From: Thermodesulfobacteriota bacterium
GTDB lineage: Bacteria; Desulfobacterota; Desulfobacteria; Desulfobacterales; SURF-7
Length of the DNA: 64,000 nucleotides
Assembly (NCBI GenBank): GCA_049320885.1
Contig: JBMORA010000017.1
Coordinates: 32,001-96,000, forward strand
Direction: 5' to 3'
A model generated the notes under the pieces. That model was given only the letters and a program-made list of their open reading frames with translations, was not told the DNA's origin and did not search any database. The position numbers and the translations under genes are program-made. Below are positions 23,199 through 40,082 of this stretch, piece by piece. Each line of letters begins with the position of its first letter. The first letter of the stretch is position 1.

Positions 23199-24059
23199 TC
23201 AGTCTGATGTTGCCGCCGGACCCGGTTTGATTTTGAAGAAAGATGATACCGGTATCAGTATCGCCAGCATAAGTATAACCATCGTTGCGATCATCATCAT
23301 CACATTCGGCTGGTCACTAAACGCACTGGTTGCAGCTATTACTGCAACACTGGCATTTCGTGCGCCATGCATGTATCCCATGGCAATCATTGAACCGCGT
23401 TCCGGCCACCCAAGCAGGTAACCGATCCCAAAGGCGACAACGATGTAGATCACTCCTGCAAGAAGTGTATATGTGCCAAACAAACCAATGAATGGCTTAT
23501 AATAAAGCCCGACGAGTGTTAACAGCAGTAAAACCACGAAAAGGCGTGAAATCAGATGCAGGTACTTTTCGGCCTTATGGGCCGCCTTCTCAAAGCGTGA
23601 TCTGATAAAGAGCCCCAGAAGCAACGGCGCCACTATGGTAAGGACCAGCTTCAACACCAGATGCTTTACATCAACTTCAACATCAGGAAGAAATACGCCA
23701 ATCATAACAGGGATGTAGATGATTGTAATGGCAATCGACATGGCAAGTATGCCACCGGCAAGAGAGACATTGGCATTGGATTTGGCCGTAAATATGGGGC
23801 CTATCTCTGCTCCTGCCGCCATGGACAACAATACCAGGCCATATCTCAGCGTCGGATCAAGACCAAAGAGCCTCGCAATGGAGGTGGCAAGAAGCGGAAG
23901 GATGATGTAGCTCGTAACAATCGCTGAGATCGTTAAACGTACATTCGTAAGAGGTTCAATAATCTGTTTGACCGTCTGACTCAATCCCAATGCCAGCATT
24001 CCACTGACCACGTAAATCAGTATGACCGGTGTTAATGCGTGCGATAACAATTCATTCAT
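23199..24059 (-). CDS. Bile acid:sodium symporter (BASS/SBF) family transporter
   Basis: Multi-TM; MLALGL, GYLLG..GARNASVA; RBS GAGG; AT-richer than flanks. Confidence 0.8.
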   Translation of the reverse strand: MNELLSHALTPVILIYVVSGMLALGLSQTVKQIIEPLTNVRLTISAIVTSYIILPLLATSIARLFGLDPTLRYGLVLLSMAAGAEIGPIFTAKSNANVSLAGGILAMSIAITIIYIPVMIGVFLPDVEVDVKHLVLKLVLTIVAPLLLGLFIRSRFEKAAHKAEKYLHLISRLFVVLLLLTLVGLYYKPFIGLFGTYTLLAGVIYIVVAFGIGYLLGWPERGSMIAMGYMHGARNASVAVIAATSAFSDQPNVMMMIATMVILMLAILIPVSSFFKIKPGPAATSD

Positions 24060-24127: not shown

Positions 24128-24733
24128 TCATATAAAGCGTACCCGGCCGGTTTCAATCTCGTAGATGGCGCCGACACACTTGATGCGTCCTTCGGCGGCA
24201 CGCGCTTGGCCTTCGGGTGACTCGATGATCGCTTGAACCGTCAAACGGACGTTGCTCTCAACCGCCAGCGTCAGCCGAGTGCGTTTCGGAAGGTCGGGAT
24301 CAACCCCGGCCAGGGCCGGCAGGATGCTGTCCACCAGCAACTGGATCCGGGAAAGTTGTTGAACACCCTCATACTTCATCTGCAGGGCGGCCTGAATGGC
24401 GCCGCACCCTTCGTGGCCGAGCACCACCATCAAAGGGGTTTGCAAATGGCTGCCGGCATATTGCAGGCTGCCCGCCACCTCCGGGGAAAGGACGTTTCCC
24501 GCGACCCGAATCACAAACAATTCACCGATGCCGGCATCGAAAATCCATTCCGGCGGCACGCGTGAATCGCTGCAACCCAGTATCGTCGCAAAGGGCTGCT
24601 GACCCTGGACCAATCCGGCCAAGGTCTCGCGCGGCAGGATAGGCGGACGAGCCTTCCCTTTCAGAAACCGTTCATTGCCGTCGATCAGGCGCTGGAGGGC
24701 TTCGTCGGCGGAAATATCGGGGGGGCTGCTCAT
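24128..24733 (-). CDS. Beta-class carbonic anhydrase
   Basis: GCSDSRV, RVAGN, GHEGCGA zinc motifs; start MSSPPD overlaps the upstream stop (ATGA). Confidence 0.92.
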   Translation of the reverse strand: MSSPPDISADEALQRLIDGNERFLKGKARPPILPRETLAGLVQGQQPFATILGCSDSRVPPEWIFDAGIGELFVIRVAGNVLSPEVAGSLQYAGSHLQTPLMVVLGHEGCGAIQAALQMKYEGVQQLSRIQLLVDSILPALAGVDPDLPKRTRLTLAVESNVRLTVQAIIESPEGQARAAEGRIKCVGAIYEIETGRVRFI

Positions 24734-26331
24734 GATTGCACCCCCATCATCGCCAGCATCACCTGAAGAAGCAGGATCTTCATGATGGTGCCGGTCGGGA
24801 AGGTAAGCGCGTAGGCGATATCCGTGTGGTCGGTGGTCACGAGCTTCGAGGCGAACATCGCGTGGGCGGGGTTGGCGGCCACGCCACAGGTGGTGCCGAG
24901 AAGGTCGTCGATCCGGAACCTGAAAACGAAATGCCCCACGACCAGGTTGAAGAGCACCGCAACGAGAACGATGATAGCCCCCCAAACGAGATAGATCATG
25001 CCGGTTTGCTGCACCGTATCGAGGAAATTCGGACCCGCGGACATGCCGACCTGGGCAAGAAATACCGTGAGGCCGAAATTCCGCAGGATGAGATTGGCGG
25101 AGACGGGCATGGTCCAGACCCACCCGCCGGTTCGTCCCAGCCGTCCCAGGATGAGTCCCACAACGAGCGGTCCACCCGCAACGCCGAGCCGCAGGGGGCC
25201 TAATCCGGGGATAGGGATCGGAAGAATGCCCAGGAGCATGCCAATCGCCATGCCGATTCCGAGCGATACATAGCTGAACTCGGTGGTACCCTTGATAGAG
25301 TCGCCAAAATGCTTGCGGGCGGCCTCGCGATGCTCGCGCCGCATCATCACACCGACGCGGTCGCCGAACTCGAGCACGAGGCCGGGCCGAGGTAGGAGAT
25401 CGGCATCCCCCCGGCGCACATGAATGACGGAGAACTCCCGCACGCCGGGTATCTGGAGATCGACCAGCGAAACGCCGACCACCGCCGGTTTTGAGATGAA
25501 AAACCTGAAATAGTCCATATCTCCCCGGTCAACGGTGATATGGCCGGCAGCGGCTTCACCGATCAGCAGCCGTGCGCCATCGAGCGCCTCCTCAGACTCC
25601 CCTGCCAAAGCCACGACGTCATTATCCGCGAGGACGATATCGGCTGCGGGAACCTTGTTCTGGCTGTCTTGCCGGACGAGGACAATCCGCACACTGGCCG
25701 GCAGCCGGGCGCTTACCTCGGCCAGAGACCGGCCGATGACCTGCCTGTTGCGCACCACGACTTCCCGAAGGTCGAGACCCGTGCCGGTCTGCCCGAGGTC
25801 TTTGGGCTTGAGCCAGAGGTTGGCGAAATACATGCAAAGCAGCGGCGCGATGAAACCGAAGGGATAAGCCACGCTGTAACCAAGGGCCGGATCGTTGTTG
25901 CCGACCGTGCTGATGGCCGCCTGCAGTGCCGGCGTGCTGGTCAACGCACCGCAGAACAACCCGGCGACTGCCGAGGGTGAGACCGAAAACCCGGCGTAAG
26001 CCGCATAGCAGACCCCGATACCGGCAAGGTGAGACATCAGCACCAGCGCGTTCGCCTTTAGCCCGAAAGGGCTGGTCAGGCCGCTGAAGACTTGCTTCCC
26101 ATACATGATCCCTATTCCGTACACAAACAGTATCAGGCCGAGTGATCCCAGCAGGGCAGGCGGGGCGGACTTGGGCGCGAACATCCCCACGCCCAGGCCC
26201 ACGAAGAGCACTGCGCCCGCACCCAGGGAAAAGCCTCGAATGTTCACCCCGCCCAGTGCATATCCAAAGCCGATGACCATGACCATCGATAGCAGCGGCT
26301 GTTGTTCGAGAAAGAGTTTGAGGATATCCAT
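24730..26331 (-). CDS. AspT/YidE/YbjL family antiporter with two TrkA-C domains
   Basis: GLFCGALTSTPALQAA, YSVAYPFG, LGVAGGPLVVGLILG; TM-TrkA_C-TrkA_C-TM layout. Confidence 0.9.
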   Translation of the reverse strand: MDILKLFLEQQPLLSMVMVIGFGYALGGVNIRGFSLGAGAVLFVGLGVGMFAPKSAPPALLGSLGLILFVYGIGIMYGKQVFSGLTSPFGLKANALVLMSHLAGIGVCYAAYAGFSVSPSAVAGLFCGALTSTPALQAAISTVGNNDPALGYSVAYPFGFIAPLLCMYFANLWLKPKDLGQTGTGLDLREVVVRNRQVIGRSLAEVSARLPASVRIVLVRQDSQNKVPAADIVLADNDVVALAGESEEALDGARLLIGEAAAGHITVDRGDMDYFRFFISKPAVVGVSLVDLQIPGVREFSVIHVRRGDADLLPRPGLVLEFGDRVGVMMRREHREAARKHFGDSIKGTTEFSYVSLGIGMAIGMLLGILPIPIPGLGPLRLGVAGGPLVVGLILGRLGRTGGWVWTMPVSANLILRNFGLTVFLAQVGMSAGPNFLDTVQQTGMIYLVWGAIIVLVAVLFNLVVGHFVFRFRIDDLLGTTCGVAANPAHAMFASKLVTTDHTDIAYALTFPTGTIMKILLLQVMLAMMGVQS

Positions 26332-26332
26332 T

Positions 26333-27304
26333 TCAGTTTTCTCCTGGATTCAGCCGGCCAAAGGCCTCGTTGATGATGGCCTGCAGTCGGCTCATGGTTT
26401 CCGGTGCCGGTGGATTGAAATCCCGCATTTCGTATATCCGGCCGAGAAACCCGTATTTGCTCTCGCCGAAACGCATGTAAGGCAGCAGCTCGTAATCAAC
26501 CACGTTTTTATACGGTTTAATGAATGCCAGGGTCGCACGGATATGCTCCTCATCGTCATTGACTCCCGGAATGACCGGCGTGCGGGCAATGAATTTCTTA
26601 TCCGGGAATGTCTCATAGGCCCGTAAAAGGTTTTCCCGGATGCGCATGTTATCCACCCCTGTCCATTTCTTATGCCTGTCCGGATCGGTCAGTTTGATGT
26701 CATGAAGCACGGTATCCACATGCGGCAGGACTTTGGCCATGAACTCCCATGGCACATTGCTCGCCGTCTCGATCGCCGTATTGATCCCGCGCTCATGCGC
26801 CCCTGCCAGCAGCGCCGCCGCAAAATCGGCCTGTAATTGACATTCGCCGCCGGAGAGCGTCATCCCCCCTCCGGATTCACGATAGAAAGCGCTGTCCTGC
26901 TCCACCTCGTCAAGTACCTGGTCCACGGTCATCTTCCGCCCGAACAGGTAAAGGGCATTCGTCGGGCAGACGTCAACACATTTGCCGCAGTTGGTGCAGA
27001 GATCCCAGTTGATCCGGACTTTATCATCCGGCCGGTCGCCGGAGCCGACGATGAATAACGCCAGTTCGGGACAGACATCCTTCAGGCAGAAGCCGCACTG
27101 CTTTTCTCCGATGCAGCTGCCGGGCTTGTATCCGAGTTCCGGTTTCAGATGGATGCTTTCGGGATTCGAACACCATTTGCAGCGCAGGGAACAGCCCTTC
27201 AAAAAAACATTCGTCCGGATACCGGGGCCATCGTGGGTGCAGAAATGCTGGATATTCAAGACGAGCCCTGTCAATGCTCCTGTTTTATCCTGCTGACTGC
27301 TCAT
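26333..27304 (-). CDS. Glycyl-radical enzyme activating enzyme (radical SAM with ferredoxin insert)
   Basis: HDGPGIRT, CSLRCKWC, two ferredoxin-type Cys motifs, GGMTLSGGE. Confidence 0.95.
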   Translation of the reverse strand: MSSQQDKTGALTGLVLNIQHFCTHDGPGIRTNVFLKGCSLRCKWCSNPESIHLKPELGYKPGSCIGEKQCGFCLKDVCPELALFIVGSGDRPDDKVRINWDLCTNCGKCVDVCPTNALYLFGRKMTVDQVLDEVEQDSAFYRESGGGMTLSGGECQLQADFAAALLAGAHERGINTAIETASNVPWEFMAKVLPHVDTVLHDIKLTDPDRHKKWTGVDNMRIRENLLRAYETFPDKKFIARTPVIPGVNDDEEHIRATLAFIKPYKNVVDYELLPYMRFGESKYGFLGRIYEMRDFNPPAPETMSRLQAIINEAFGRLNPGEN

Positions 27305-28473
27305 GGCTTCACCTCCTCGGCTCCAAGCGAGATGCCGAGGGACCGCGCGAGCTTGACGAACTCGCTGTCAGCAGGCACGACCCTGATCTTGTTGATGGCC
27401 TCGGTCATGGGAACGAACTTCAGATCCGGCGGCTGGAAGACCACCATGACACCGCTCTGGCCGGCCTTCAGGGCGCGCACTGCCCCGGCGCCGTATCCCA
27501 GCCCGAGCTGGCGGTCTACGACCGTGGGTGTTCCTCCCCTGGCCAGCTGGCCCAGGACAAGGGGATAGGTTTCCTGGTCGGTCAGTCGCTGGAGTTCAAG
27601 CGCCACCTCGACGGCAATCCGGCCGGATCCTTCAATGACATGAGCGCCTTCGGCGCCGGAGGCTCCCGGAGAGAGTGAGGCCTTCATCTTTGAATCCGAA
27701 GTCCTGGGGGTTGCATCAGTTCCAGTCAATGGTTTCGCTCCTTCGGCCACCACCACCAGCCCGAAGTTTTGCCCCGCCTTCGCCTTTTTCCGTAATTTTT
27801 CCGAAACCTTGCGGAGGTCATAAGGAATCTCCGGGATGAGCACGGCATCGGCGCATACGGCCATGCCCGCCTGCAGGGCCAGCCACCCGGAGTGTTCCCC
27901 CAATACTTCAACCACGCCGATCCGGCGGGCGGACCGGGCTGCCTGCCGAAACCTTTCGAGCATGTCCGCCGTGAAACTCAAGGCGCTGTTGAATCCAAAG
28001 GAAAGGATGGTGGCGGCCACATCATTTTCAACTGATTTCGGCACAGAGACCGTCTGGAGTCCTTTCCGGCTGAGCTTCCAGAGGATGCTCAGCGCCCTGG
28101 AGCCGACCACGGAGACGATGGCATCGATCTTTTCTTTTCTGATGATCTCCAGGAGTTCATCGGACCGGTCCTTCTCCTCCACCATGTTTTCCGCGTTGAC
28201 GGCGCGGACATGGAAAGGGTCGCTTTGGGCCCCGGTGCCTAGGATACAGCCGGCGGCGCCGGCGATGTTTTCCAGGATGGCCGGTGAGAGCCGCATCACT
28301 CCGCCGTCGGGATAGCGGTCGGGAAAGAGCAGCCCTTCAAATCCGTCGCGGATCCCCAGCACTTCCCAGCCCAATTCACTTGCCGCGAGCACCACTCCGG
28401 CAATCACGGCATTGAGTCCCGGGACATAGCCCCCGCCAAAATTGACGGCAATGCGTTTTGCTGCTGTTTGCAT
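27301..28473 (-). CDS. Divergent phosphofructokinase (PfkA)-fold protein
   Basis: PGLNAVI, DGFEGL, VLIPE, VVAEG and RGG.P place it in the PFK fold, but the catalytic motifs are altered. Confidence 0.85.
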   Translation of the reverse strand: MQTAAKRIAVNFGGGYVPGLNAVIAGVVLAASELGWEVLGIRDGFEGLLFPDRYPDGGVMRLSPAILENIAGAAGCILGTGAQSDPFHVRAVNAENMVEEKDRSDELLEIIRKEKIDAIVSVVGSRALSILWKLSRKGLQTVSVPKSVENDVAATILSFGFNSALSFTADMLERFRQAARSARRIGVVEVLGEHSGWLALQAGMAVCADAVLIPEIPYDLRKVSEKLRKKAKAGQNFGLVVVAEGAKPLTGTDATPRTSDSKMKASLSPGASGAEGAHVIEGSGRIAVEVALELQRLTDQETYPLVLGQLARGGTPTVVDRQLGLGYGAGAVRALKAGQSGVMVVFQPPDLKFVPMTEAINKIRVVPADSEFVKLARSLGISLGAEEVKP

Positions 28474-28544: not shown

Positions 28545-29651
28545 TTATTTCCTTTTCATTGCAGATGCATGTAATTGATTTGGATCATTTTCGATCCATG
28601 CCGAGAAAATTTTATAAGAAATTGAGAGAACCACCGGACCGAGAAATAAACCGATAGCGCCCGACATTATCATGCCGCCGATAGCGCCAATAAGAATCAC
28701 CAGCATAGGGACTTCGACCCCCCTGCCGAGCAGGAGCGGCTTCAAAATAGCATCACTCAAAGACACAAAAACACTCCAGATCATAAAGACAACAGCCGGT
28801 GTGGTTTCCTGCACAGAAAAGACATAGACGACAATCGGACCCAGAACCAAAAGCGGCGGCAACTGAATAATTGCCAAAAATAAGACGATCAGTGCCCACA
28901 GCCCAGCCGCGGGTACGTTGGCGGCGAGCAGACCAATGCTGGCAAGAATGGCCTGTATCACGGCAATCCCCAAAACTCCCTGGACGACACTTCGTATGGT
29001 ATTGCCTGTGAGGTCTGCGAACACATCTCCTTGTTGTCTTGCCACACGCCGAAAGATCCGATGGGCAGTCTTTACACCGCCGTCTGAATTAACAAGAAAC
29101 AAACCGGCAATAATAATAGAAACAATAAACTGCATGACCGTCATCCCCAGCCCCAGTCCGGCAGAAAAAAGTTTTTTGCCATATGTCATAATATATGGTT
29201 TCAGTTGGTATATCGCTTTTTCCGTATTTTCTGAAGCCAAGCGCCAGAAATTATCGATTGGTTTACCTATCAACGGCCACCCGGCAACTTCATCCGACGG
29301 TGGCGGCACTCGTAATGTGTCGTTTTCAATGCCTGTTTTTAAGGTCTGGATACCGTTAATGGTTGAATCCATCAGCAGGGCCGCTGGGACCATCAACACT
29401 GAAAGTGCAAACAACGTTAACAAAACAGCGGACAGCTTTTTTCGATTGCCCATCATTGAGGAAAGTTTCTGATGCAAGGGGTAAATTCCGATGGCAATGA
29501 TAACACCCCAAAGGACCGGGTTAATAAATGCCCTCACAATCATAAAACTCCATACCACAAGAATTGCGATAAGGGAGATTCGGACAGATGCTTCTATCGA
29601 TTTTCCTATAAAATCGGTATCTCCTCCATTTATTTGATTGAATTTTGTCAT
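28545..29651 (-). CDS. AI-2E family transporter (YdiK-like)
   Basis: DAILKPLLLGRG..GAIGG..GAIGLFLGPVVL; RBS GGAG; AT-richer. Confidence 0.88.
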   Translation of the reverse strand: MTKFNQINGGDTDFIGKSIEASVRISLIAILVVWSFMIVRAFINPVLWGVIIAIGIYPLHQKLSSMMGNRKKLSAVLLTLFALSVLMVPAALLMDSTINGIQTLKTGIENDTLRVPPPSDEVAGWPLIGKPIDNFWRLASENTEKAIYQLKPYIMTYGKKLFSAGLGLGMTVMQFIVSIIIAGLFLVNSDGGVKTAHRIFRRVARQQGDVFADLTGNTIRSVVQGVLGIAVIQAILASIGLLAANVPAAGLWALIVLFLAIIQLPPLLVLGPIVVYVFSVQETTPAVVFMIWSVFVSLSDAILKPLLLGRGVEVPMLVILIGAIGGMIMSGAIGLFLGPVVLSISYKIFSAWIENDPNQLHASAMKRK

Positions 29652-29728: not shown

Positions 29729-31126
29729 TCACATCTTCGATCCGCGCGATGAGCTCATCATATTGATGATATCTGCTTCTGACATGATGGGACTCTGGTC
29801 TAACCGCAACGCGCCTCCATAGGCATCCTTTGCATCATCCCAGAAGACGGGAATCCCCTTCAGGCTGCCCTCGGATGGCAATCTCAGCAAGGCCTCCCGG
29901 ATAGCGATACGAAGAGTCTCTTCAACAGGCAAGGCCCTGAAAATGGTCCCAAAAACATAATTGATATATTGATGGACATGGACCTTATGTTCTTTTTGAC
30001 TCCACATCGGGGAGATCACCTTCCTCTCAAGGCAGTCCATGAGATGGCTCACAATCGGTTCCAATACGGGCTTCACGTGAATCTGCCGCCACGATCCCGG
30101 GCCGCGGACAGGCTTCTGGACTTCAAGCCTTCTGGTATTGATCCACCTCACGCGTTCACGCGTCTTCCGGGCTCCCAGCCTTTTGACTTGGAAGACTTCG
30201 ATAAAAGCCGTCTCCACTTCGTCCACCTGGACAATAACGATATCCCTTTCCTGCATATTCGCCGCAATCCTGTCGAGTTCGCAGGCCTGCTCATCTTGTG
30301 GATATTGATTCAGAACATTTCCCAAAAACAGGACATTCTGCGTGTTCTTGATCCGTTGAGGAACATCTGTCTTTTGCAAGGTGATTCCGAATTCCGCGAG
30401 ACCTGCCTCCAGAGGATATTTTTCCATCCGGTACCCGTCCCAGGAAAGTCCAGGCTGGCTCGGGTCGCTGTCCTGTTTCTTTTCCAGCTCAATTCCTGCC
30501 TCGATCTTCACCACATCGGGCGCCAGCATTTCGTCCAGTTCCGGGTCGGAGAACTCGACCCGTTCACCTGAGTAGAGGAACGGCCGACCCATGAAATACG
30601 CCTCCCAGACCTCGTTCCCATGCAGATCGTACGAATAGGCGACGGAAGAGACCCGGCCCTTTCGATCCACCACAAAATGCCAGTCCTCCACCTGGCGCAC
30701 AGTCGCCTTGGAAGAGATCATCCGGGACAAGCATCCGCGGATCTGCTCCTCCCTGTCCCCCAGGAGACGGACGTGCGAGTAGGGCACCGCCTCGAGGCGT
30801 TCCGTGGCGACGTAATCCACATCCATCTTGAGGTCACTTGCCAAGAGCCTCTTCAAGGCGGTTGACACTTTGGCACGGGATACGCCGACATCGATGAACG
30901 CAAACCCAGGGTCCAACAGGGGTGGTCCGTCCCGGCCAGGATTTTGAGGATGCTGGAGGTCCCGCAGAAGGCTCCCGATCCCGGCATTCCTGTCAGGGAT
31001 GATGTTGGTGTCGACCAAGGGAACCGAAGTCCGAGCCTTCATGGCCGGAACATCTTCGGGCTGCTCTCGATTTCCCGTGGTGGTGCCTTGAAGCCATGAC
31101 GGGTTCCTTGCCCTCGATATCTTCAC
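29729..31126 (-). CDS. Hypothetical protein, possibly degenerate SAM-dependent methyltransferase fold
   Basis: 465-aa ORF, GTG start with GGAGG; FIDVGVS..YVATE..FLGNVLNQY loosely resemble class I methyltransferase motifs. Confidence 0.5.
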   Translation of the reverse strand: MKISRARNPSWLQGTTTGNREQPEDVPAMKARTSVPLVDTNIIPDRNAGIGSLLRDLQHPQNPGRDGPPLLDPGFAFIDVGVSRAKVSTALKRLLASDLKMDVDYVATERLEAVPYSHVRLLGDREEQIRGCLSRMISSKATVRQVEDWHFVVDRKGRVSSVAYSYDLHGNEVWEAYFMGRPFLYSGERVEFSDPELDEMLAPDVVKIEAGIELEKKQDSDPSQPGLSWDGYRMEKYPLEAGLAEFGITLQKTDVPQRIKNTQNVLFLGNVLNQYPQDEQACELDRIAANMQERDIVIVQVDEVETAFIEVFQVKRLGARKTRERVRWINTRRLEVQKPVRGPGSWRQIHVKPVLEPIVSHLMDCLERKVISPMWSQKEHKVHVHQYINYVFGTIFRALPVEETLRIAIREALLRLPSEGSLKGIPVFWDDAKDAYGGALRLDQSPIMSEADIINMMSSSRGSKM

Positions 31127-31295: not shown

Positions 31296-32786
31296 CTAGT
31301 CGACCATCGGTTTTTCTCCCTGGTACAGCGGGTGTTCCTTTTCGCTGTCTAACCGCTCCTTGCGCGGTTTGCTCCAGTATTCCCAGCGTGCGGTCGGTGT
31401 GAACACGCCGGTCACGGCTGCGTTAACCAGGGCTTCCGGGTTGCCATAGATCCATTTCGGTCCGAAGCCGCCTCCCAGCTTAACGTACTTGAAGCTGTCC
31501 GTCGCGATGACTGTGCCCTTCGGGTAGTGTCGGATCGGGGACATGGCGATGCAGGTCTGGTGGAAGATGTGGCCACCGGCATCCTCGATGATCTTGGTAT
31601 CGCCGTAGTGCTGGGCCATGAAGTACGTGGGCGTGTCGGTCTGCACCCACAGATGTACTCCCTTTTTCACCTTCTTGCCTTTCACCAGGCGCGCAACCTC
31701 GCGGACCTCATCCCAGGTGGCGTGCGGGCAACCGAAGAAGACGATGTCCACCGGCTTCGCCTTTTCAGGTCCGGGCGCCGGCTCGATGGCGTTGAGGTGG
31801 TGGTACATCTCGATGACGTCTTCCATGGTAACCTTATAGCGTTCAGGGTTCTTGGGCATCTTGCCCTTGAAAGCGGCCTCCAGGGTTGGAGACTCCGGTG
31901 TGTAGCCCATGAGGTGCAGCATGGGGTCGTTCATGCCGGGTGAGGCGCAGGAGATCAGATTCTTTGTCGCGCCCGGGCCCATCTTCTTGGGCAGGTTGAG
32001 CACTGCCATGATCCGGTTGCCTGCCTTTTCGGCGATGGCGGCGCCCAGGGCGCCCCAGTCAGCCATACCCTTGATGTTGTCGCGGACCTCGTCAGTCAGC
32101 TCGACGACGCACTTGGCTGCACGATACTCGTCGAGGTGGGTGCCGTACTTCGGCAGGCAGCCGGTGTACGCGCAGTACACCGTGTTGATGGCGGCTTCCC
32201 GGTTGGTCCGGGCGCCCAGGATGGTGTTGATGTAGCAGGCTGCGCTGGACTCGGAGCTGGCGGCATACTCACCCATTTTGGGAATGCGGGTGTTAAAGTA
32301 GGGGTTACACGAGAGCCAGGGAAGCCAGCCATGCTCCATCAGCTTGTCGTACCCCGCCTGGAAGCCATCGACCATTTCCTTGTCGAGTCTGAAGTTTCCT
32401 TTACCCGGAATCTCGAAGTTCCATGGTTTTCCGTTCGGCGGTCCCAGGATCTCGCTGGCCTTGTCCAACTGGCACATGTAGGGATCGTTGCCGCACTCGG
32501 TGCCGGATTCGTCGTGGACATGCGCGTCCTTCATCGCGAAGATCGGATCGTAGAGCGGGCTGTGTCCCAAATCGTATTCATTGAGCTTCGCCAGTCTCTT
32601 CGGCTCCAGACGATCCTTCACATAGATGGGACAGCAGTTGAGCGTGAGGACAAGATCCACCATTTCCGTTGCTTCCACCGCTTTGCCGAAGTCCAAGAGC
32701 TTGTCCATGCAGAACTGTTTGGCTTCGCCATGTTTGCCATCCAGCATTTCCTGTTGGTACGTCGTAAGTTTCATTTTTGCTTTCAT
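31296..32786 (-). CDS. Aconitase X large (catalytic Fe-S) subunit, DUF521
   Basis: LTTYQQEMLDGKHG, SCNPY, SESSA..GARTNRE, GCPH, QTC, TDSFKY. Confidence 0.88.
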   Translation of the reverse strand: MKAKMKLTTYQQEMLDGKHGEAKQFCMDKLLDFGKAVEATEMVDLVLTLNCCPIYVKDRLEPKRLAKLNEYDLGHSPLYDPIFAMKDAHVHDESGTECGNDPYMCQLDKASEILGPPNGKPWNFEIPGKGNFRLDKEMVDGFQAGYDKLMEHGWLPWLSCNPYFNTRIPKMGEYAASSESSAACYINTILGARTNREAAINTVYCAYTGCLPKYGTHLDEYRAAKCVVELTDEVRDNIKGMADWGALGAAIAEKAGNRIMAVLNLPKKMGPGATKNLISCASPGMNDPMLHLMGYTPESPTLEAAFKGKMPKNPERYKVTMEDVIEMYHHLNAIEPAPGPEKAKPVDIVFFGCPHATWDEVREVARLVKGKKVKKGVHLWVQTDTPTYFMAQHYGDTKIIEDAGGHIFHQTCIAMSPIRHYPKGTVIATDSFKYVKLGGGFGPKWIYGNPEALVNAAVTGVFTPTARWEYWSKPRKERLDSEKEHPLYQGEKPMVD

Positions 32787-32833: not shown

Positions 32834-33271
32834 TTACCCTTTGCGGGTAATTGTTACAGTGGCTTTCTCACCGACTTCGGGCGCGTCGATCTCAACCCAG
32901 TCGCCGGTTCTGATGGTCGTGATCGGGTCCTGGTCCAATTTGTCCACGGCGGGAATTTCACCGGCGATGGCGCCGTTGATATCGATAAAATGAACCTCCT
33001 GGCAGATGAGGCCTGCGGGGCCGTGGTTGGAGACCTTGCACTTGTAGTACAGGCTGAAGGCCCCGCTGGTGGAGCCGGCCGTCGTGGGATAGACGAAGAT
33101 CTTGCCGGTCACGATTTGGCCTTTAGTGTCAGCGCCTGGCGCCATAACCATGCCGTCCTCGTTGCCGACGTGGTTGAACGCCCATCCGATCCGCTGGCGA
33201 TTCACCAACGCTTCGCCTGCCGCTTTTCCTTTAGACCGGGCGATGCCGGTTAAAACGATTTTTTGTTCCAT
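32834..33271 (-). CDS. Aconitase X small (swivel) subunit, DUF126
   Basis: GKAAGEALV, GKIFVYP..GSTSG, GAIAGEIPAVD, TGDWVEIDA; RBS AAGGAG. Confidence 0.88.
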   Translation of the reverse strand: MEQKIVLTGIARSKGKAAGEALVNRQRIGWAFNHVGNEDGMVMAPGADTKGQIVTGKIFVYPTTAGSTSGAFSLYYKCKVSNHGPAGLICQEVHFIDINGAIAGEIPAVDKLDQDPITTIRTGDWVEIDAPEVGEKATVTITRKG

Positions 33272-33423: not shown

Positions 33424-35940
33424 TCAGCCCATGTTCTCTTCCGTCCGGGCGATGATTTCGGCCTGCTGTGAGGGTGACAGGTCGGTGAAATACGCGCAGT
33501 AGCCGGCAACCCGCACGACCAGATCCCGGTACTTTTCCGGGTTCTTCTGTGCGTCCAGCAGGGATTGTCTATTGAGGATATTGAACTGGATGTGGGCATG
33601 CTTCTGGCTGCTCCAGACGCGGATAAGCTGCATGAGCCGGCGCGTCCCTTCCTCTCCGGCCACGTTGGCCGGCGCCATCTTCATGTTGAGCAGGTCTTCC
33701 CGATGCGTTTTGTAGATCTGGCAGGTCGCCCTGGCGATGGACTGGAGGGTCACCGTGGGCCCCTTGGTGTCGCAGCCGTGGGAGGGAACGATGCCATCGG
33801 ATAGATATTCTCCGCCTCTCCGGCCGTTCGGCGTGGCCATGGTCACCCTGCCGGACGGGTTATGAAAGGTGATCGGAATGATGCGCATGTTGGCGCTCTG
33901 GCCATGGGGCCTGGGATGGTTGTGGGCATACTCCATAACGGTTCGCTGGATGTGGTAGCCGATGGTGTCCACCCATTCGATGCCGTTGCCGTACTTGGGG
34001 GCATTGAGGCACATCTGACGAATGGCCTCCATGCCTTCCCAGTCGCACTCCAGGGCATCGAGGAGCTGGCCCCATGTGAGTTTCTTCGTGTCGAAAATGA
34101 GATGCTTGATGGCAGCCAGGGAATCGATGCAGGTCGCGAACCCTCCGAGCCCGTCGATGCAGGAAGCATCCAGCGCCCCCGGGATGTAATCACCGTGGGT
34201 GTGGAGGTCCCGGCCGTGCTCCATGCACAGGTCATGGAGCGTGGAGGCTAGCGGCGCCGCGATATACTTGGGCTTCTGCGCGACCGCTATGTAGTTCTGG
34301 ATCATGATGTGCTTGACGACGTTCTCGAGCTGCATCTTGTAGGCATTCCACACGTCGTCGTAGGTCTTGAACGTCCGCGGATCACCCGTCTTCAGGCCGA
34401 ATTGCTCGTCCTTGTAGATTTTCATCCTGCCGTCCCGGAGCGTCATCTCCATGACCGCGCCGTAATTGATGCCGCCATTGCCGGTCTTGTGGGTCTCGCG
34501 GTTGGGCAGGCGCGATTCCGAGCACCCGGACATGGCGTAATCCAGGGCTTCCCGTTTCACGATCCCGTTGCTCATGAACCACGGCACCTCGAACTCGTCG
34601 TTGATCAGTTTGGGCGAACCCTTGCCGTCCTTGATGGTCTCGGCCACCGCATGCAGGAACTTGTCGGGCGTACCGGCGTGGATCCGGACCCCCAGCTCCG
34701 GGTAGCTGCACTTGAGCGGCCGGGTGGATTCCAGGATCAGGTAAGAGAGTTCGTTAGTGGCGTCGAAACCGTCGGGGGTCTGGCCGCCGATGGTCACCGT
34801 CTCGTGATGGGAGAATCCCTCGCGGCCCTTGGCTGCGGATGGCGACATTTGCGACTCGATGCTCTGCATGATGTGCAGCCAGAGGCACTGGAACAGCTCC
34901 TGGGCCGCTTCCGGCGTGATCCGGCCTTCTTCGAGGTCCTTTTTATAGGTGGGATAGAGATACTGGTCCATCCGGCCCTGATTGACTTGCCCTCCGACCA
35001 TCTCCTCCAGACGCGAGAAAAGCTGGGTGAACCACTGGGCCTGGACCGCTTCCCGGAAGGTGCGCGCCGGGTTCTTCGGAACCCAGGCGCAGACGGCCGC
35101 GATCTCCGCCAATTCCTTCTTGCGCTGGGCATTCGTCTCCTTGGCTGCCATCGCGGCGGCCAATTCGGAGTATCGTTTGGCGAAGAGGCTTAATGCGTCG
35201 CAGGTGATGATGGCCGCTTCGTAGAAGGGCTTCTTGAAAGCCAGGTCGCGCGGATCTTCCAGCGCGGCCAACCGCGCCTGGGCTTCCGCGCGCAGACCCT
35301 TACAGCCGCGCTTCAGCATTTTCTCAAAATCAGGGACCCAGTTCTGGGAATGTCGCATGGTTGAAGTGGAAATGATCACGAACGAAAACGTGGTCCCGAC
35401 ATTCTCGGGGTCAGAACCCCAGAACAAGTGTCGGGTTTCAGGAGGCAGGGCCTTGATGAAGTTTGGGGTAAAGTCCTTGCCTTTCCAATAAGGGAAAAGA
35501 ACCTCGTCAATGATCTTCTTGTCTTCCTCAGTCACGGTAACGGCGTCCGGGGCTCCGGCCTCTTTGGCCGCAATGAACGCTTTTGCTCCCTCTTGGATGA
35601 TCGTGCCGTCAAGCTCCGGGTAAACCAGCGAGTACCGTCCGAACCAGGCGCAGGGCCGGCCCACGATCAGCTCATCGTCGAAGATGGCGACCGAGATCTT
35701 TTCCGCGATGTGTTGCAGGGCTTTGGCCCAGCGCCAGACCAGCGGCTGACCTTCCGTGGCCTTGAAAGACTCCGTGAAGTATACTGCCCGTTCCAGGGCG
35801 ACCCGGGGCGGACCGGAGGAACGAATGGCGTCAAACATTCTGAGAACCCGGTCGGTGGCGGTTCCATGCAATACGTTTTTGCCGTCGGCAATGGCCTGTT
35901 CCTGTGCGGAAAGCACAGATGCAATGTGTTCATTTGTCAT
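33424..35940 (-). CDS. Glycyl radical enzyme, isethionate sulfite-lyase (IslA)-like clade, substrate unknown
   Basis: Gly loop RVAGY, Cys loop SGCSES, GRMDQY, TPNGR; YPELDG and LVWRWAKAL recall IslA/HpsG; RBS AAGGAG. Confidence 0.93.
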   Translation of the reverse strand: MTNEHIASVLSAQEQAIADGKNVLHGTATDRVLRMFDAIRSSGPPRVALERAVYFTESFKATEGQPLVWRWAKALQHIAEKISVAIFDDELIVGRPCAWFGRYSLVYPELDGTIIQEGAKAFIAAKEAGAPDAVTVTEEDKKIIDEVLFPYWKGKDFTPNFIKALPPETRHLFWGSDPENVGTTFSFVIISTSTMRHSQNWVPDFEKMLKRGCKGLRAEAQARLAALEDPRDLAFKKPFYEAAIITCDALSLFAKRYSELAAAMAAKETNAQRKKELAEIAAVCAWVPKNPARTFREAVQAQWFTQLFSRLEEMVGGQVNQGRMDQYLYPTYKKDLEEGRITPEAAQELFQCLWLHIMQSIESQMSPSAAKGREGFSHHETVTIGGQTPDGFDATNELSYLILESTRPLKCSYPELGVRIHAGTPDKFLHAVAETIKDGKGSPKLINDEFEVPWFMSNGIVKREALDYAMSGCSESRLPNRETHKTGNGGINYGAVMEMTLRDGRMKIYKDEQFGLKTGDPRTFKTYDDVWNAYKMQLENVVKHIMIQNYIAVAQKPKYIAAPLASTLHDLCMEHGRDLHTHGDYIPGALDASCIDGLGGFATCIDSLAAIKHLIFDTKKLTWGQLLDALECDWEGMEAIRQMCLNAPKYGNGIEWVDTIGYHIQRTVMEYAHNHPRPHGQSANMRIIPITFHNPSGRVTMATPNGRRGGEYLSDGIVPSHGCDTKGPTVTLQSIARATCQIYKTHREDLLNMKMAPANVAGEEGTRRLMQLIRVWSSQKHAHIQFNILNRQSLLDAQKNPEKYRDLVVRVAGYCAYFTDLSPSQQAEIIARTEENMG

Positions 35941-36033: not shown

Positions 36034-36435
36034 TCACGACACTCCGTCCATATCCGGCGAAATGTATTTCCGGCCCTCGAGCACTTCGCGGAAAGCCGGA
36101 ATCAAATCAATCGCTGCTCTTCGTTTCAAAACGTAGCCTTCGACTCCTGCGGCCATCACCTCGTCTATTACTGATTGATCATCGTAGAGGCTAAGGATAA
36201 TGATTTTTATTCTAGGAAACTTTTTTTTCAGGGCCCATGCAATGTTTGTTTCCTCTGAATGTGAAAGCGACTGGTCAACCACCACCACATCGGGATGGTG
36301 GGTCTCCAAGGCATGGTAGAGCGACATTTCGTCGGAAACCATTAAAACCGTCTTGACCTCATTTTCAAGAAGTCGGTATATGCCTCCCAACATATTTGTA
36401 TGTTTATCAGCGAGAATAACACGGCTTTTTCGCAT
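36034..36435 (-). CDS. Stand-alone NarL-type receiver-domain protein
   Basis: RVILADKH, PDVVVVD, GYVLK, G.KYISP; ends without an HTH. Confidence 0.8.
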   Translation of the reverse strand: MRKSRVILADKHTNMLGGIYRLLENEVKTVLMVSDEMSLYHALETHHPDVVVVDQSLSHSEETNIAWALKKKFPRIKIIILSLYDDQSVIDEVMAAGVEGYVLKRRAAIDLIPAFREVLEGRKYISPDMDGVS

Positions 36436-36520
36436 ACGCTTTTTACCTTCAATCGGGCAATCCGGGGCAATCAATTTGTGGAATGATGGTCAGGCTATAG
36501 AAAAGGCGATAATAAAACAA

Positions 36521-36559
36521 CTGGGAAAATTACTGGTCCAGGGCTGGGAAATTACTGGT
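36521..36559. promoter_or_regulatory. Tandem direct repeat, candidate response-regulator operator
   Basis: CTGGGAAAATTACTGGT and CTGGGAAATTACTGGT with cores 22 bp apart, upstream of the receiver/GRE genes. Confidence 0.6.
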
Positions 36560-36603
36560 ATGGGTCGGAAGGTTTTTTGTCTGCGGCCTGGTAATCTGGC
36601 GCA

Positions 36604-37245
36604 TTATACGGCGGCAATGCCTTGTTTCACAGCATACTGGATCAATTCGGAACTGGTCTTGATACCGAGTCGTTCCATCATTTTGTATTTGTGAAATTCA
36701 ACAGTCTTTGTTGAAATATCCAAAACGGATGCGATTTCTTTCGCAGACTTCCCTTCAACCAAGAGTTGTAAAACCTCCCGTTGCCGGGGACTTATCTCTT
36801 TCAAACGAATATTATCCGGTGACAACCCTTTCTGATAGGCGTGGATAAGGTCTCCTGCAATCAGGGGAGTTATATACGTTTTCCCTTTCATTGCTTCATG
36901 GATCGCGGAAACCAACTCGGATGGGGCCGAGTGTTTCAAGACGAACCCGCAAGCGCCTGCCTCAAAAGCACTAGCTGCATAGGTTACGTCCGGGTGCATG
37001 GTTAAAAATACAATCTTGATGCTTTTATCGGTTTTTTTAATCTGGCGCACTGCTTCGATTCCATTGAGCTGGGGCATCGAGATATCCGCCACGATCACAT
37101 CAGGATGGAGGGCGGCTGCCTGTTTGACGAGGGCTCGCCCATCCTGCACTGTTCCGACAATTTCAAACTCGCCTTCCAGAAGGCTTTTTAACCCCATGAG
37201 CACGAAGTAATGATCATCCGCTAATAGAACACGTGCCTTTTTCAT
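36604..37245 (-). CDS. NarL/FixJ-family response regulator (REC + LuxR HTH)
   Basis: LADDH, ADISMPQLNG, SPRQREVLQLLVEGKSAKEIA..KTVEFHK. Confidence 0.95.
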   Translation of the reverse strand: MKKARVLLADDHYFVLMGLKSLLEGEFEIVGTVQDGRALVKQAAALHPDVIVADISMPQLNGIEAVRQIKKTDKSIKIVFLTMHPDVTYAASAFEAGACGFVLKHSAPSELVSAIHEAMKGKTYITPLIAGDLIHAYQKGLSPDNIRLKEISPRQREVLQLLVEGKSAKEIASVLDISTKTVEFHKYKMMERLGIKTSSELIQYAVKQGIAAV

Positions 37246-40082
37246 TCTCCCTCCTTCATCAACCCCTGTAGGGGCACCCTGACGGTGATCCGGGTTCCTT
37301 TTCCCGGTTGGGAGTTGATGGAATGTTCTCCTTGGAAAAGTCTGACCCGTTCACGAATACTCGAGAGTCCCAGGCCCGGTTTTGCTTTTACCACCGCCGA
37401 ATCGAATCCAATGCCATCGTCCTGAATAGATAATAAAATGTCATGATCATTACCCGTTAAGGAAATAGAAATATGCTCGGCGCAGGCATGTTTGGAAATG
37501 TTGCTTAGCCCCTCCTGAATCATTCGGTATAATGACAGAGAAATATCTTTAGGGATAACCGAATGGATGTTCTCATGACGGAAGACGACTTCTGTTCCTT
37601 CTCTTTTCGAAAAATTCGTGCATTGCGATTCGATTGCCCTGATTAACCCCAGATCATCCAAGATGGATGGGTGAAGTCGGCGCGAGAGGTTATGGACATC
37701 TCCAGAGATTTTAACCATATCATGTTTCATTTCACTAAGCATTACCTGAACAGAGGCTGGTTGATCCTTCAACTCTAATTCGAGTCTTCCGATGTTAATT
37801 GCAAAGACCGCCAAACGTTGCACCAAATCATCATGGAGTTCACGGGCCAAGCGGCTCCGTTCCTCCTCCTGATTGTGAATCAATCTCCCGGCAAGCAACC
37901 GGAGCTCCTTTTCACTCTGTAGCAGTATCTCATCACTTTTACGAGTTGCCTCAATCACTTGCTTGCGTTCTATTGCATTGGCAAACAGATTGCTGATGAG
38001 TCGAAACCGCTGCAGCAAATGCCTCGGCCAGACCCGCTCCTTAGTGATCGACACAAGGGCGCATGATCCCAAGGTCTTGTGCCCAGCTATCAGGGGCATG
38101 GAAAGAAACGATTTCATACCCTTGGTCAAGCAAAGTCGCCGTTCATTTTGTGCTTCCGGCGGAAAATCATTTACCCGGTTTATCACCACCGTATTCCCTT
38201 GAATCAATTGCTCCATGTACCAAGGCAGTTGTTCGGCCAACAGCAATTTCGGGGCGGGTTCGACCTCTGCCAAATGATAATCAAAGGCTAGAACAAGCTG
38301 AGTTTGGTCCTCGGTAAATATTCCGATGCTGCATCTATCCGCTTTAAAAAATTCGGTGAAGCCCCGGAGCCACTTATTGATTTCGCTGTCGACAGCATCG
38401 ATGGAAAGGTTCATGAAATGACTTAATAGTTCGGAAATCATGCGTTCAAACAGTAACTGCTCTGCCAAGTTCTCCTCGGCCAGTTTACGCTTGGTGATGT
38501 CTTCCAGAAATCCACTATAGTAGAGCGTTTTGCCGTCCGGATCGCATACCTTACGGCCGCTGAGCGATGCCCAAATTCTCGTTCCATCCTGCCGCAGCAT
38601 TTGGCACTCAAAACCATGCACAACATCCTGCTTTTCAATCAACTCCATAAACTCCAAACGCTTATCCGGGTCTGCATATACCTGATTCCCTACATTTCGG
38701 ATTTTCGCAATCAACTCGCCGGGTGAATCATATCCAAGGGTATTCGCCAGGGCGGGGTTAACCGTCAGAGGCTGACCTTGCGTCGAGGTTTCAAAGAGAC
38801 CTTCTACGGCGCCGTCGAAAATGTTTCGGTACTTTTCTACCGCTTTTCTGAGTGAGTCCTCGGCCGATTTCTTCCGGCGCCTCTGGACAACAAGAAAAAT
38901 AATCAGGGCGCTTTCCACCAGACAGAAGCCTATAACCCCAATAATGTAATACTGGAAGTCATAAAAGGTGGACTGCTTATTTTTGATGATGCTCTCCTCG
39001 GGTAAATCGTTTTCGTTCAGGTCCCAATGCCTGAGCTGCGACCAGTCGAATATCGGTATGGGAGGGACATCCAGAATGGCCTGGGTATTTTCTGAAACCC
39101 GGGTGCCTCCAAGGATTTTCAGAACCATTTGGCCCGCATGAACACCGGTTTGTTCAAAGTTTATGAGACGGCCTCCCACCATCACGTCTGATAGATTGTA
39201 GTCGATAAGCCCGAAGATCGGGGCTGCGGAAACCTGGCGCAGCCGTTTAAGCACTATCGGGTTTGTGTAGTTTTTCCCGGTAACATCCTGGGTATACGTC
39301 AAGAAAAGGATAATGGAGTGGGGGGGCACGCTGGATACCATTGCCAGAACATCCTCGAAGGCCAGGTGGCTCAAGTAGATAAACTCCAGCCGGCTCTCCC
39401 ATTTCTTCAAATCGGCTCGAGCCTGCGCTTCTATAGCTCGGTCGACTTCGTGGGCGCCGCCCACCATATAGACTCGTTTTGCCCCCGGAACCAGCTTTAG
39501 CGCAACCTCAAGCGTGCCGGTGATATTTAACCTGGAGAGATGCCGGATGATGCGGGGGTCGGTCCCTGGCACCCCTTGGTTTTGCGGCAGGTACAAGGCA
39601 AGAATGGGGACATGGGGAAGGACATCCTGGCAATCCTTCAGTACGAATTCCAAAGCTTCCGGATACATGGTTATGATCATGTCGAGCTTGCGACGGCCGT
39701 AACGCGCGCGCATCTGCTCGACCAAAAGTTTTCTATACTCGGCGCCGGGGTTCTGCCTCAGATTAAGGGATTCGAAAAACTGATTCAGGCTGGATATCCC
39801 GCCGGACTCCAGCGTTTCCGCGAGTCCCTTGTCGGTCCCCCAAAAAACGGGTGCGTTGGCTTCATGAGAATGCAGGACCAGAATGTTTTTCCCAGCCAGA
39901 CCTGCAGTAGCCTGTATCTGGGCAAAGGCCTGGCCGGCGCCTGGCCTGAAGGCTATCAGGAGGAAAAAACATAAAACAGAATAAACCGTTGTCACTCTGA
40001 TTCGGTGAGCGTGCGGCATTTCTATGAATAAGGCATTGCTGTTCATGACCTGATCTATCCAAGAAATAGTCTTGCATGTCAA
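37242..40082 (-). CDS. Membrane sensor histidine kinase (periplasmic binding domain, PAS, GAF, HisKA_3, HATPase)
   Basis: EERSRLARELHDD, QEGLSNISKH, DDGIGFD, GLGL; overlaps the regulator start; exact start uncertain. Confidence 0.9.
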   Translation of the reverse strand: MTCKTISWIDQVMNSNALFIEMPHAHRIRVTTVYSVLCFFLLIAFRPGAGQAFAQIQATAGLAGKNILVLHSHEANAPVFWGTDKGLAETLESGGISSLNQFFESLNLRQNPGAEYRKLLVEQMRARYGRRKLDMIITMYPEALEFVLKDCQDVLPHVPILALYLPQNQGVPGTDPRIIRHLSRLNITGTLEVALKLVPGAKRVYMVGGAHEVDRAIEAQARADLKKWESRLEFIYLSHLAFEDVLAMVSSVPPHSIILFLTYTQDVTGKNYTNPIVLKRLRQVSAAPIFGLIDYNLSDVMVGGRLINFEQTGVHAGQMVLKILGGTRVSENTQAILDVPPIPIFDWSQLRHWDLNENDLPEESIIKNKQSTFYDFQYYIIGVIGFCLVESALIIFLVVQRRRKKSAEDSLRKAVEKYRNIFDGAVEGLFETSTQGQPLTVNPALANTLGYDSPGELIAKIRNVGNQVYADPDKRLEFMELIEKQDVVHGFECQMLRQDGTRIWASLSGRKVCDPDGKTLYYSGFLEDITKRKLAEENLAEQLLFERMISELLSHFMNLSIDAVDSEINKWLRGFTEFFKADRCSIGIFTEDQTQLVLAFDYHLAEVEPAPKLLLAEQLPWYMEQLIQGNTVVINRVNDFPPEAQNERRLCLTKGMKSFLSMPLIAGHKTLGSCALVSITKERVWPRHLLQRFRLISNLFANAIERKQVIEATRKSDEILLQSEKELRLLAGRLIHNQEEERSRLARELHDDLVQRLAVFAINIGRLELELKDQPASVQVMLSEMKHDMVKISGDVHNLSRRLHPSILDDLGLIRAIESQCTNFSKREGTEVVFRHENIHSVIPKDISLSLYRMIQEGLSNISKHACAEHISISLTGNDHDILLSIQDDGIGFDSAVVKAKPGLGLSSIRERVRLFQGEHSINSQPGKGTRITVRVPLQGLMKEGE

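Follow-up and report, generated by a model that had tools for sequence, protein, structure and literature searches.

A glycyl radical enzyme outside the IslA/HpsG sulfonate lyases and a predicted partner of its activase

Here, we describe a gene cluster from a Thermodesulfobacteriota bacterium (GenBank assembly GCA_049320885.1, contig JBMORA010000017.1) that contains a gene for a glycyl radical enzyme (GRE). Hereafter, the window means the stretch of DNA that was analysed, which spans 64,000 nt (positions 32,001 to 96,000 of the contig), and the window features given by coordinates lie on its minus strand. In gene order, the cluster encodes the GRE, the small and the large subunit of aconitase X, an orphan protein, an AI-2E permease, a protein resembling phosphofructokinase (PFK), the GRE activating enzyme (activase), a YidE antiporter, a carbonic anhydrase and a BASS symporter. 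The GRE gene (33424..35940) is an open reading frame (ORF) free of internal stops that encodes an intact, oxygen-sensitive enzyme of 838 amino acids, which has an R373/H378/H379 pocket and belongs to an uncharacterised clade sister to IslA and HpsG. PF02901 and PF01228 both score above their cut-offs, and the radical glycine G813 (33502..33504) and C473 of the Cys loop (C473-S474-E475, 34516..34524) are present, as expected of a PFL-like GRE. The AlphaFold model has a pLDDT of 86.9 and a pTM of 0.89. A sequence search of the PDB gave 37 matches, the top three being IseG, HpsG and IslA (E 1e-242 to 1e-225, the next at 1e-152), and a fold search with the model places the same three on top (TM 0.90–0.92, 42–46% identity).

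Alignment with IslA (7KQ3) separates what is kept in the active site from what is changed. Retained are R196 (IslA R189), C473 and E475 (C468 and E470), R686 (R678) and G813 (G805), whereas I192 is changed to Q199, Q193 to N200, T312 to G317, N368 to R373, W374 to H379, V680 to I688 and F682 to I690. These positions include the β1 anion site (R196...Q199-N200, 35341..35355), G317 (34990..34992), the R373...H378-H379 segment (34804..34824; N368/H373/W374 in IslA and columns S334/D339/F340 in HypD) and β8 (R686...I690, 33871..33885). A preliminary description of this gene, made from its letters, had cited motifs that we find at residues 195, 316, 371, 472, 486, 684 and 810. It had called the RVAGY and GCSE loops intact, as they are, and the IslA segments that it quoted match 7KQ3. 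Its view that both anion-binding arginines are retained in an otherwise altered pocket is borne out by the alignment with IslA and HpsG, in which several other pocket residues differ.

An Arg/Gln/Arg sulfonate triad is common to IslA, IseG and HpsG (PMC13450708; PMC6453916), and the two sulfonate arginines are described as absent in other GREs. Judged from the aligned residues, R196 and R686 supply both arginines and the triad is nevertheless broken, because the Gln193 that is essential in IslA is Asn here. In IslA, the Q193A, R189E, R678E, E470Q and V680A variants are inactive, while variants of W374, F682 and I192 stay active; Ile192 lies near the sulfonate, and Trp374 lies ~6 Å from the substrate and touches the Gly loop (PMC8473560). 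The Trp-to-His change at a column where IslA, IseG and HpsG all have Trp is real, as had been proposed, yet sits away from the substrate in IslA. Likewise, the proposed PF-to-PI change is present (F682 to I690) but not distinctive, as HpsG (6LON) also has Ile. The Cys-x-Glu motif had been taken to favour an eliminase; this argument falls away, as the motif is shared by HPAD, IAD and GRE isomerases and does not discriminate between classes (PMC13450708).

Scoring 7999 candidates in a protein search for relatives of the GRE gave 2392 matches at E≤1e-100; the 120 listed are 61–92% identical to it. We compared 111 loci (31 genome loci plus the best 80 of 136 metagenome matches), some of which come from the same genome or are near-duplicates, so that the counts are not independent. 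By columns 373, 378 and 379, which alone define the pocket class, 70 loci are of the R373 type and 38 of sister types (26 T/K/F, 7 M/H/F and 5 others), with 3 uncovered; R373/H378/H379 are present in all aligned relatives at ≥70% identity. Columns independent of this definition are conserved as well: Q199 and G317 in 70/70, N488 in 69/70 (one uncovered), and R686 as well as Ile or Val at 690 in all 63 covered loci. Position 200 is Asn in 64 of the 70, Asp in 4 and Gly in 2, but never Gln. Conservation of this kind indicates that the pocket changes are not drift. In a midpoint-rooted FastTree of 39 selected GREs, in which L126 and L127 stand in for the solved IslA/HpsG-type enzymes, the whole radiation is sister to the IslA/HpsG-type sequences and the R373 type forms one clade (support 1.0 for both). 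The earlier label of an IslA-clade GRE is not borne out, as the protein belongs to a sister clade. On the NCBIfam HpsG model NF048011 (cut-off 1000), L126 and L127 score 1557 and 1498, the R373 type 982–999 and the window GRE 991.7. With about 60% identity or more (published thresholds, PMC6453916; PMC6386719) plus this cut-off as the yardstick for membership, its 42–46% identity, its score and its separate clade place it outside the IslA/IseG/HpsG grouping. The fold, the catalytic residues, the two arginines and a long-type activase are shared with IslA and IseG (7KQ3, 5YMR); the differences, besides identity, clade and pocket, are hosts that mostly do not respire sulfite and neighbours that comprise aconitase X or a short-chain dehydrogenase/reductase (SDR) and a pseudo-PFK. 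All in all, this is a real, conserved and uncharacterised GRE variant that probably acts like a sulfonate lyase.

The R373 column corresponds to GD Phe333 and CutC Phe389. In HypD this column holds Ser334, an essential ligand of the substrate carboxylate, and the I690 column (Thr645) is used for carboxylate binding as well (PMC7077986). HypD differs in other respects: it is ~32% identical, its ligands are neutral and polar rather than Arg, and its substrate is an amino acid. HpsG shares the two arginines and the Ile at the F682 column, an Ile that may leave space for a substituted carbinol carbon. It differs by retaining the Trp and the sulfonate Gln and by having Gln, not Arg, at the R373 column. 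Since Phe682 fills the space on the R373 side in IslA and is Ile690 here, it is reasonable to infer from the residues a roomier pocket with a cationic second site. The preliminary description had gone further and proposed a substrate with a second anionic group instead of isethionate. The loss of the conserved, essential Gln193 does make an ordinary isethionate lyase unlikely and R373 does fall in the HypD carboxylate column, which gives a second-anion site a structural precedent.

Besides the pocket, a conserved operon, overlooked in the preliminary description, offers clues. We counted neighbours in the 40 loci of the R373 type that have ≥3 kb of sequence downstream, taking matches anywhere in the locus on either strand. 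Aconitase X is found in 27, an SDR in 16 and either of the two in 39, while the PFK-like gene is found in 34 and the activase in 33. Aconitase X is present in 23/23 loci at ≥82% identity, and the SDR in 14/17 below 82%. In the window, aconitase X consists of a small (swivel) subunit (32834..33271; 145 amino acids from the ATG used by relatives), with the TkAcnX catalytic Ser-Thr column kept, and a large subunit (31296..32786) in which C160, C353, C412, E179-S180-S181 and K433 are invariant in 13/13 aligned sequences. These residues match the cluster ligands and the carboxylate/C3-OH site of TkAcnX (PMC8184944). The two subunits, three cluster Cys, Glu-Ser-Ser, Lys and catalytic Ser are those of type II enzymes, such as TkAcnX (a mevalonate-5-phosphate dehydratase) and the type IIa cis-3-hydroxy-L-proline (C3LHyp) dehydratases, while the window pair differs by its score on the LhpI model (146 against a cut-off of 700), an extra invariant K436 and its linkage to a GRE. 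Its N-terminal region, where the landmark residues for C3LHyp or mevalonate 5-phosphate would lie, could not be aligned to TkAcnX, the closest solved aconitase X. PMC8184944 lists types IIc–f as uncharacterised. For the SDR, searches gave no specific family or structure match. The sulfolactate dehydrogenase SlcC is presumably an SDR too, which literature passages did not confirm. As a separate observation, two aconitase X subtypes, ~48% identical (L001:13079-14482 and window 31296-32786), lie beside GREs that are 93% identical, which suggests exchange of the aconitase X pair.

We tentatively favour a reading in which the GRE removes sulfite by radical elimination from a hydroxysulfonate that also bears a carboxylate, with sulfolactate or a C4 homologue as examples. 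Judged from the sequence, radical relay and activation are near certain, because G813, C473, E475, R196, R686 and the activase are intact. Elimination at the carbinol carbon is likely because the enzyme descends from C–S lyases, a point of phylogeny and not of the Cys-x-Glu motif. A β-hydroxy acid in the pathway is likely as well, because aconitase X keeps its carboxylate/C3-OH-binding residues. The substrate would be a small hydroxy acid with a sulfonate next to the carbinol carbon, undergoing radical 1,2-elimination: 3-sulfolactate would give pyruvate and sulfite, and 3-hydroxy-4-sulfobutyrate (C4) would give acetoacetate and sulfite. G813 would pass the radical to C473, which would abstract the carbinol hydrogen; E475 would take the hydroxyl proton, and the resulting ketyl would eject the anion held by R196, Q199, N200 and R686. 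R373, given room by the F682-to-I690 change, would grip the carboxylate where HpsG has Gln. A single step separates sulfolactate from the HpsG substrate (COO− in place of CH2OH, with Arg in place of Gln), and the C4 homologue appears the better match to aconitase X and the SDR. We found no aldehyde dehydrogenase or microcompartment gene among the recurring annotated neighbour clusters, so a keto-acid product fits. Less firmly, aconitase X (by hydration or dehydration of a β-hydroxy acid) or the SDR (by ketone/alcohol redox) might be alternatives for substrate supply or epimerisation. If the enzyme is a C–S lyase, it would provide an oxygen-independent route to sulfonate sulfur for organisms that do not reduce sulfate.

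Several observations weigh against sulfite elimination. Gln193, one of the three sulfonate ligands, is kept in none of the 70 loci. R373 co-varies with residue 596 (Asp in 59, Glu in 5 and uncovered or gapped in 6 of the 70; Glu in sister clades), and could form a structural salt bridge with D596. Sister GREs that lack R373 likewise have aconitase X and the SDR beside them. Among the 31 carrier genomes, many of them incomplete metagenome-assembled genomes, dsrA scores above its cut-off in only 7, the host included (0/14 controls passed), and sulfite-export genes lie beside a handful of the 111 loci, a count that has no background rate. Sulfolactate is an α-hydroxy acid, whereas the aconitase X site suits a β-hydroxy acid, and we know of no abundant natural source of the C4 candidate. 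(R)-sulfolactate is already cleaved non-radically by SuyAB (PMC12890257; PMC12421959). In HypD, Arg156, at the R196 position, helps to hold a carboxylate (PMC7077986), so that the arginines are no proof of a sulfonate. The IslA authors further caution that GRE substrates are difficult to predict owing to strand shifts (PMC8473560).

If the arginines bind two carboxylates instead, the GRE would be a C–O eliminase (dehydratase) acting on a hydroxy-dicarboxylate or a sugar acid that contains no sulfur, for instance an aldarate or an isomer of tartrate, and its keto-acid product would be decarboxylated. Such an enzyme would account for the loss of Gln193, and it agrees with the suitability of the aconitase X site for β-hydroxy carboxylates, with dsrA being below cut-off or absent in most carriers, with DcaP porins in L002 and L121, and with the recurrence of carbonic anhydrase (4/40) and the YidE antiporter (7/40). 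We nonetheless consider a dehydratase unlikely: the nearest characterised relatives are all C–S lyases, carbonic anhydrase is not seen near most loci, and such substrates usually go to acid–base dehydratases. Carbonic anhydrase and YidE are too sporadic to be taken as proof of decarboxylation. Alternatively, the third Arg might serve one more highly charged anion, either a phosphate ester (phosphate elimination) or 2-hydroxyethylphosphonate (1,2-migration, C–P chemistry). IslA Gln193 and Thr312 are named as steric blocks to 2-hydroxyethylphosphonate migration (PMC8473560); both are shortened here, to Asn and Gly, which keeps this idea alive, and the closest solved aconitase X uses mevalonate 5-phosphate. 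A phosphorus substrate is improbable all the same, as a sister type that lacks R373 has N200 and G317 too, the TkAcnX alignment misses the phosphate-binding segment, no phosphonate or phosphite gene was found in the 35 + 112 + 14 neighbour proteins scanned (a subset of 1059 ORFs), and the PFK-like gene discussed below is no substrate clue.

Non-eliminating chemistry, by a ring-opening isomerase of the YbiW/PflD/HplG type or a decarboxylase, is hardly probable either: both IslA arginines are retained and these enzymes lie much further off (E 1e-107 or weaker), even though they have Cys-x-Glu too and carbonic anhydrase and the antiporter occur at some loci. Finally, the GRE could be an ordinary isethionate or 2,3-dihydroxypropane-1-sulfonate sulfo-lyase with a compensated pocket, in which Q199 replaces Q193. 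Its HpsG score close to the cut-off, the source label isethionate sulfite-lyase on the relative P0053 and the position of Ile192 near the sulfonate, where Q199 could substitute, speak for it. Yet this is very unlikely in view of the mere 42–46% identity, the gap between IslA-type and R373-type scores on the same model and the lack of a conserved aldehyde-processing gene among the neighbours; an Arg beside a neutral carbinol end also makes little sense.

The most novel and most testable element of the operon is the predicted activase partner. The PFK-like gene (27301..28473) overlaps the start of the activase gene (26333..27304) by 4 nt, and the gap between the two is ≤26 nt in 27 of 28 loci picked for having both genes whole. 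The activase is a radical S-adenosylmethionine (SAM) enzyme with an auxiliary ferredoxin domain (TIGR02494 above cut-off). The PFK-like protein (390 amino acids) lacks the kinase motifs: Glu (E149) stands at the catalytic Asp column in 61/62 cassette copies and the Gly-Gly-Asp-Gly loop is lost, whereas 4/4 ordinary PFK controls keep both. Judged by the catalytic Asp, this loop and the substrate Arg, it does not qualify as a 6-phosphofructokinase. Four weaker PFK matches (L114, L115, L122, L123) turn out to be ordinary PFKs that are not near GREs. The PFK-like gene also separates an unrelated GRE, which is 31% identical and has no Glu in its Cys loop, from its activase in five further loci (L112:9318-11753, L113:11039-13504, L116:4034-6496, L118:3545-5995 and L120:3923-6343, the coordinates being those of the GRE). 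These unrelated GREs have a rhodanese or a pyridine-nucleotide-disulfide reductase as neighbour, and the genomes of L006, L012, L017, L025 and L027 hold both cassettes. Because the same gene accompanies an unrelated GRE and lacks kinase motifs, we rejected it as a sign of a phosphorylated substrate. It rather tracks the activase lineage than the GRE, since the activases of the unrelated PFK-linked GREs are 58–64% identical to the window activase, and those of the closer M/H/F sister GREs, which lack the PFK-like gene, 50–52%.

An ESMFold2 model of the activase with the PFK-like protein scores 0.71, compared with 0.01 for the best of three controls; the mark for this score is reached by 116/157 solved complexes and 2/215 mismatched pairs, and is a rough guide here, as our own alignments were used. 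The runs have ≥44% of contacts in common, with a partner pLDDT of ≥83, and place residues 85–100, 126–133 and 360–368 of the PFK-like protein against activase residues 38–41, 81–102, 183–185 and 216–221. The model supports binding of the PFK-like protein to the activase; in the favoured reading it would be such a partner and not a pathway kinase. N183 of the activase is present in 50/50 PFK-linked and 0/12 unlinked activases, a contrast that is confounded by descent. Interface conservation gave a mixed outcome and was set aside as independent support: the interface shows no enrichment over the rest in the 50 linked activases (0.69 vs 0.76), and a larger drop in the 12 unlinked ones (0.29 vs 0.53), again confounded by descent. 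L024, whose genome has no match to the PFK-like gene, encodes an activase of the linked lineage in which L102 and N183 are changed.

A PDB search with the PFK-like protein gave only PFKs, and we know of no solved complex of an activase with such a protein. Literature searches found no activase with a PFK-like or pseudokinase partner, and the excerpt from the review PMC13450708 mentions no PFK-fold activase partner. Known GRE accessory subunits (HPAD γ and the BSS and MASS small subunits) are likewise operon-encoded helpers that affect radical installation; these are small Fe–S proteins that bind the GRE (PMC13450708), whereas the prediction here is of a 390-residue PFK-fold protein that binds the activase. 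Taken together, it is possible, though short of probable, that a mobile soil and sediment cassette encodes a kinase-dead PFK-fold protein that docks across the radical-SAM cluster loop (38–41) and the auxiliary ferredoxin domain of the activase. As a first activase accessory, it could act as a gate or a safeguard for radical installation, perhaps under the control of a metabolite, and serve at least two unrelated GRE clades; the GRE of the window would cleave a dianionic substrate by a new radical reaction (C–S in a sulfolactate-type compound or, most boldly, C–P by migration). Activase solubility and activation are a bottleneck of the field, and what the auxiliary ferredoxin domain does is listed as open (2026 review, PMC13450708); a dedicated binding partner would open both questions to direct testing.

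The GRE belongs to a large uncharacterised radiation beside the sulfonate lyases. We found no description of the clade or operon in the excerpt from PMC13450708 or in the literature searches, though supplementary similarity-network tables could list these proteins, and a literature search found no paper that has a GRE and aconitase X together. Carriers at 86–94% identity include Verrucomicrobia, Bacteroidales, Ignavibacteria, Nitrospira, cyanobacteria, Planctomycetales, Anaerolineales and Deltaproteobacteria, and those at 61–63% Pseudomonas and Rubrivivax. Luteitalea sp. TBR-22, Sphingomonas limnosediminicola and Pseudomonas sp. N040 are environmental carriers that have been cultured. No orthologue was found in 40 host-related genomes, some incomplete and two of the same genus (best 45–49%), which speaks against vertical inheritance. 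This, with the high identity across phyla, points to horizontal spread of the operon. Other GREs of the host are ≤34% identical to the 838-residue protein, with none at the IslA level; contigs C9, C25, C28, C46 and C53 encode at least five such distant GREs (27–34% identity), three with adjacent activases. Sister M/H/F GREs in L064, L067, L068 and L077 are followed by activase, BKACE, AraC, MFS and SDR genes, without a PFK-like gene. The one in L064 scores above the NCBIfam HpsG cut-off (1056) despite having no sulfonate Gln. As the R373 type lies within 20 bits of this cut-off and a sister type above it, annotation can mislabel the radiation. Two genomes of the host's family encode an IslA-adjacent GRE (L124:4127-6613 and L125:4352-6838; HpsG score 1185) in which the Gln193 column holds Ala and a Pro on β8 is replaced by Ser.

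The orphan protein (29729..31042) has no Pfam or NCBIfam match; a lead is its Atlas cluster, with CheR in 17% of members (score 0.95, recognition below the tool's mark). By clustering, this CheR-like gene is present in 14 loci, higher profile-match tallies including spurious short matches; it goes with the window's aconitase X subtype. The AI-2E family permease gene (28545..29651) lies in a lower-GC stretch, occurs in only 4 of the 111 other loci and is probably a passenger. The AspT/YidE-type antiporter (24730..26331) and the carbonic anhydrase (24128..24733, likely start 24733) are variable members, and the BASS/SBF-family symporter (23199..24059) is a frequent one. Upstream of the GRE, a sensor kinase and two response-regulator genes (36034..40082) are probable regulators. 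A promoter and terminator scan was at chance level (10 vs 8.7 and 16 vs 15.2). In 4/4 RNA runs from three studies (soil, rice paddy), contigs of relatives (80–99% alike) extend over the genes of the GRE and of aconitase X, with almost no cover of the upstream regulator and AI-2E genes; such contigs show neither strand nor level, and the libraries may contain DNA.

Sulfur-handling neighbours are sporadic: TauE in L053, YeiH in L020 and L062, SulP in L005, L022 and L065, rhodanese in L022, and aryl- and alkyl-sulfatase within the operon of L013, L038 and L117. In two proteobacteria, a GFA-family protein, YeiH, MFS and glutathione reductase are encoded upstream of aconitase X and the GRE (L020:1998-6615, L062:159-4621). 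In L119 (2154-3659), a family III CoA-transferase is encoded between aconitase X and the BASS symporter, and in L121 (9223-10644) an N-terminal piece similar to it is seemingly fused to the orphan protein. Short extra GRE C-termini (glycyl-radical domain) follow the operon in L025 (16282-16465 and 20597-20773), a locus rich in frameshifts, and may be spare-part proteins or remnants. SAM synthetase, NifU/Fe–S biogenesis or ferredoxin genes recur within the cassette (L007, L009, L013, L038, L073; L006, L030, L040, L074; L096, L101, L106), consistent with support of the activase.

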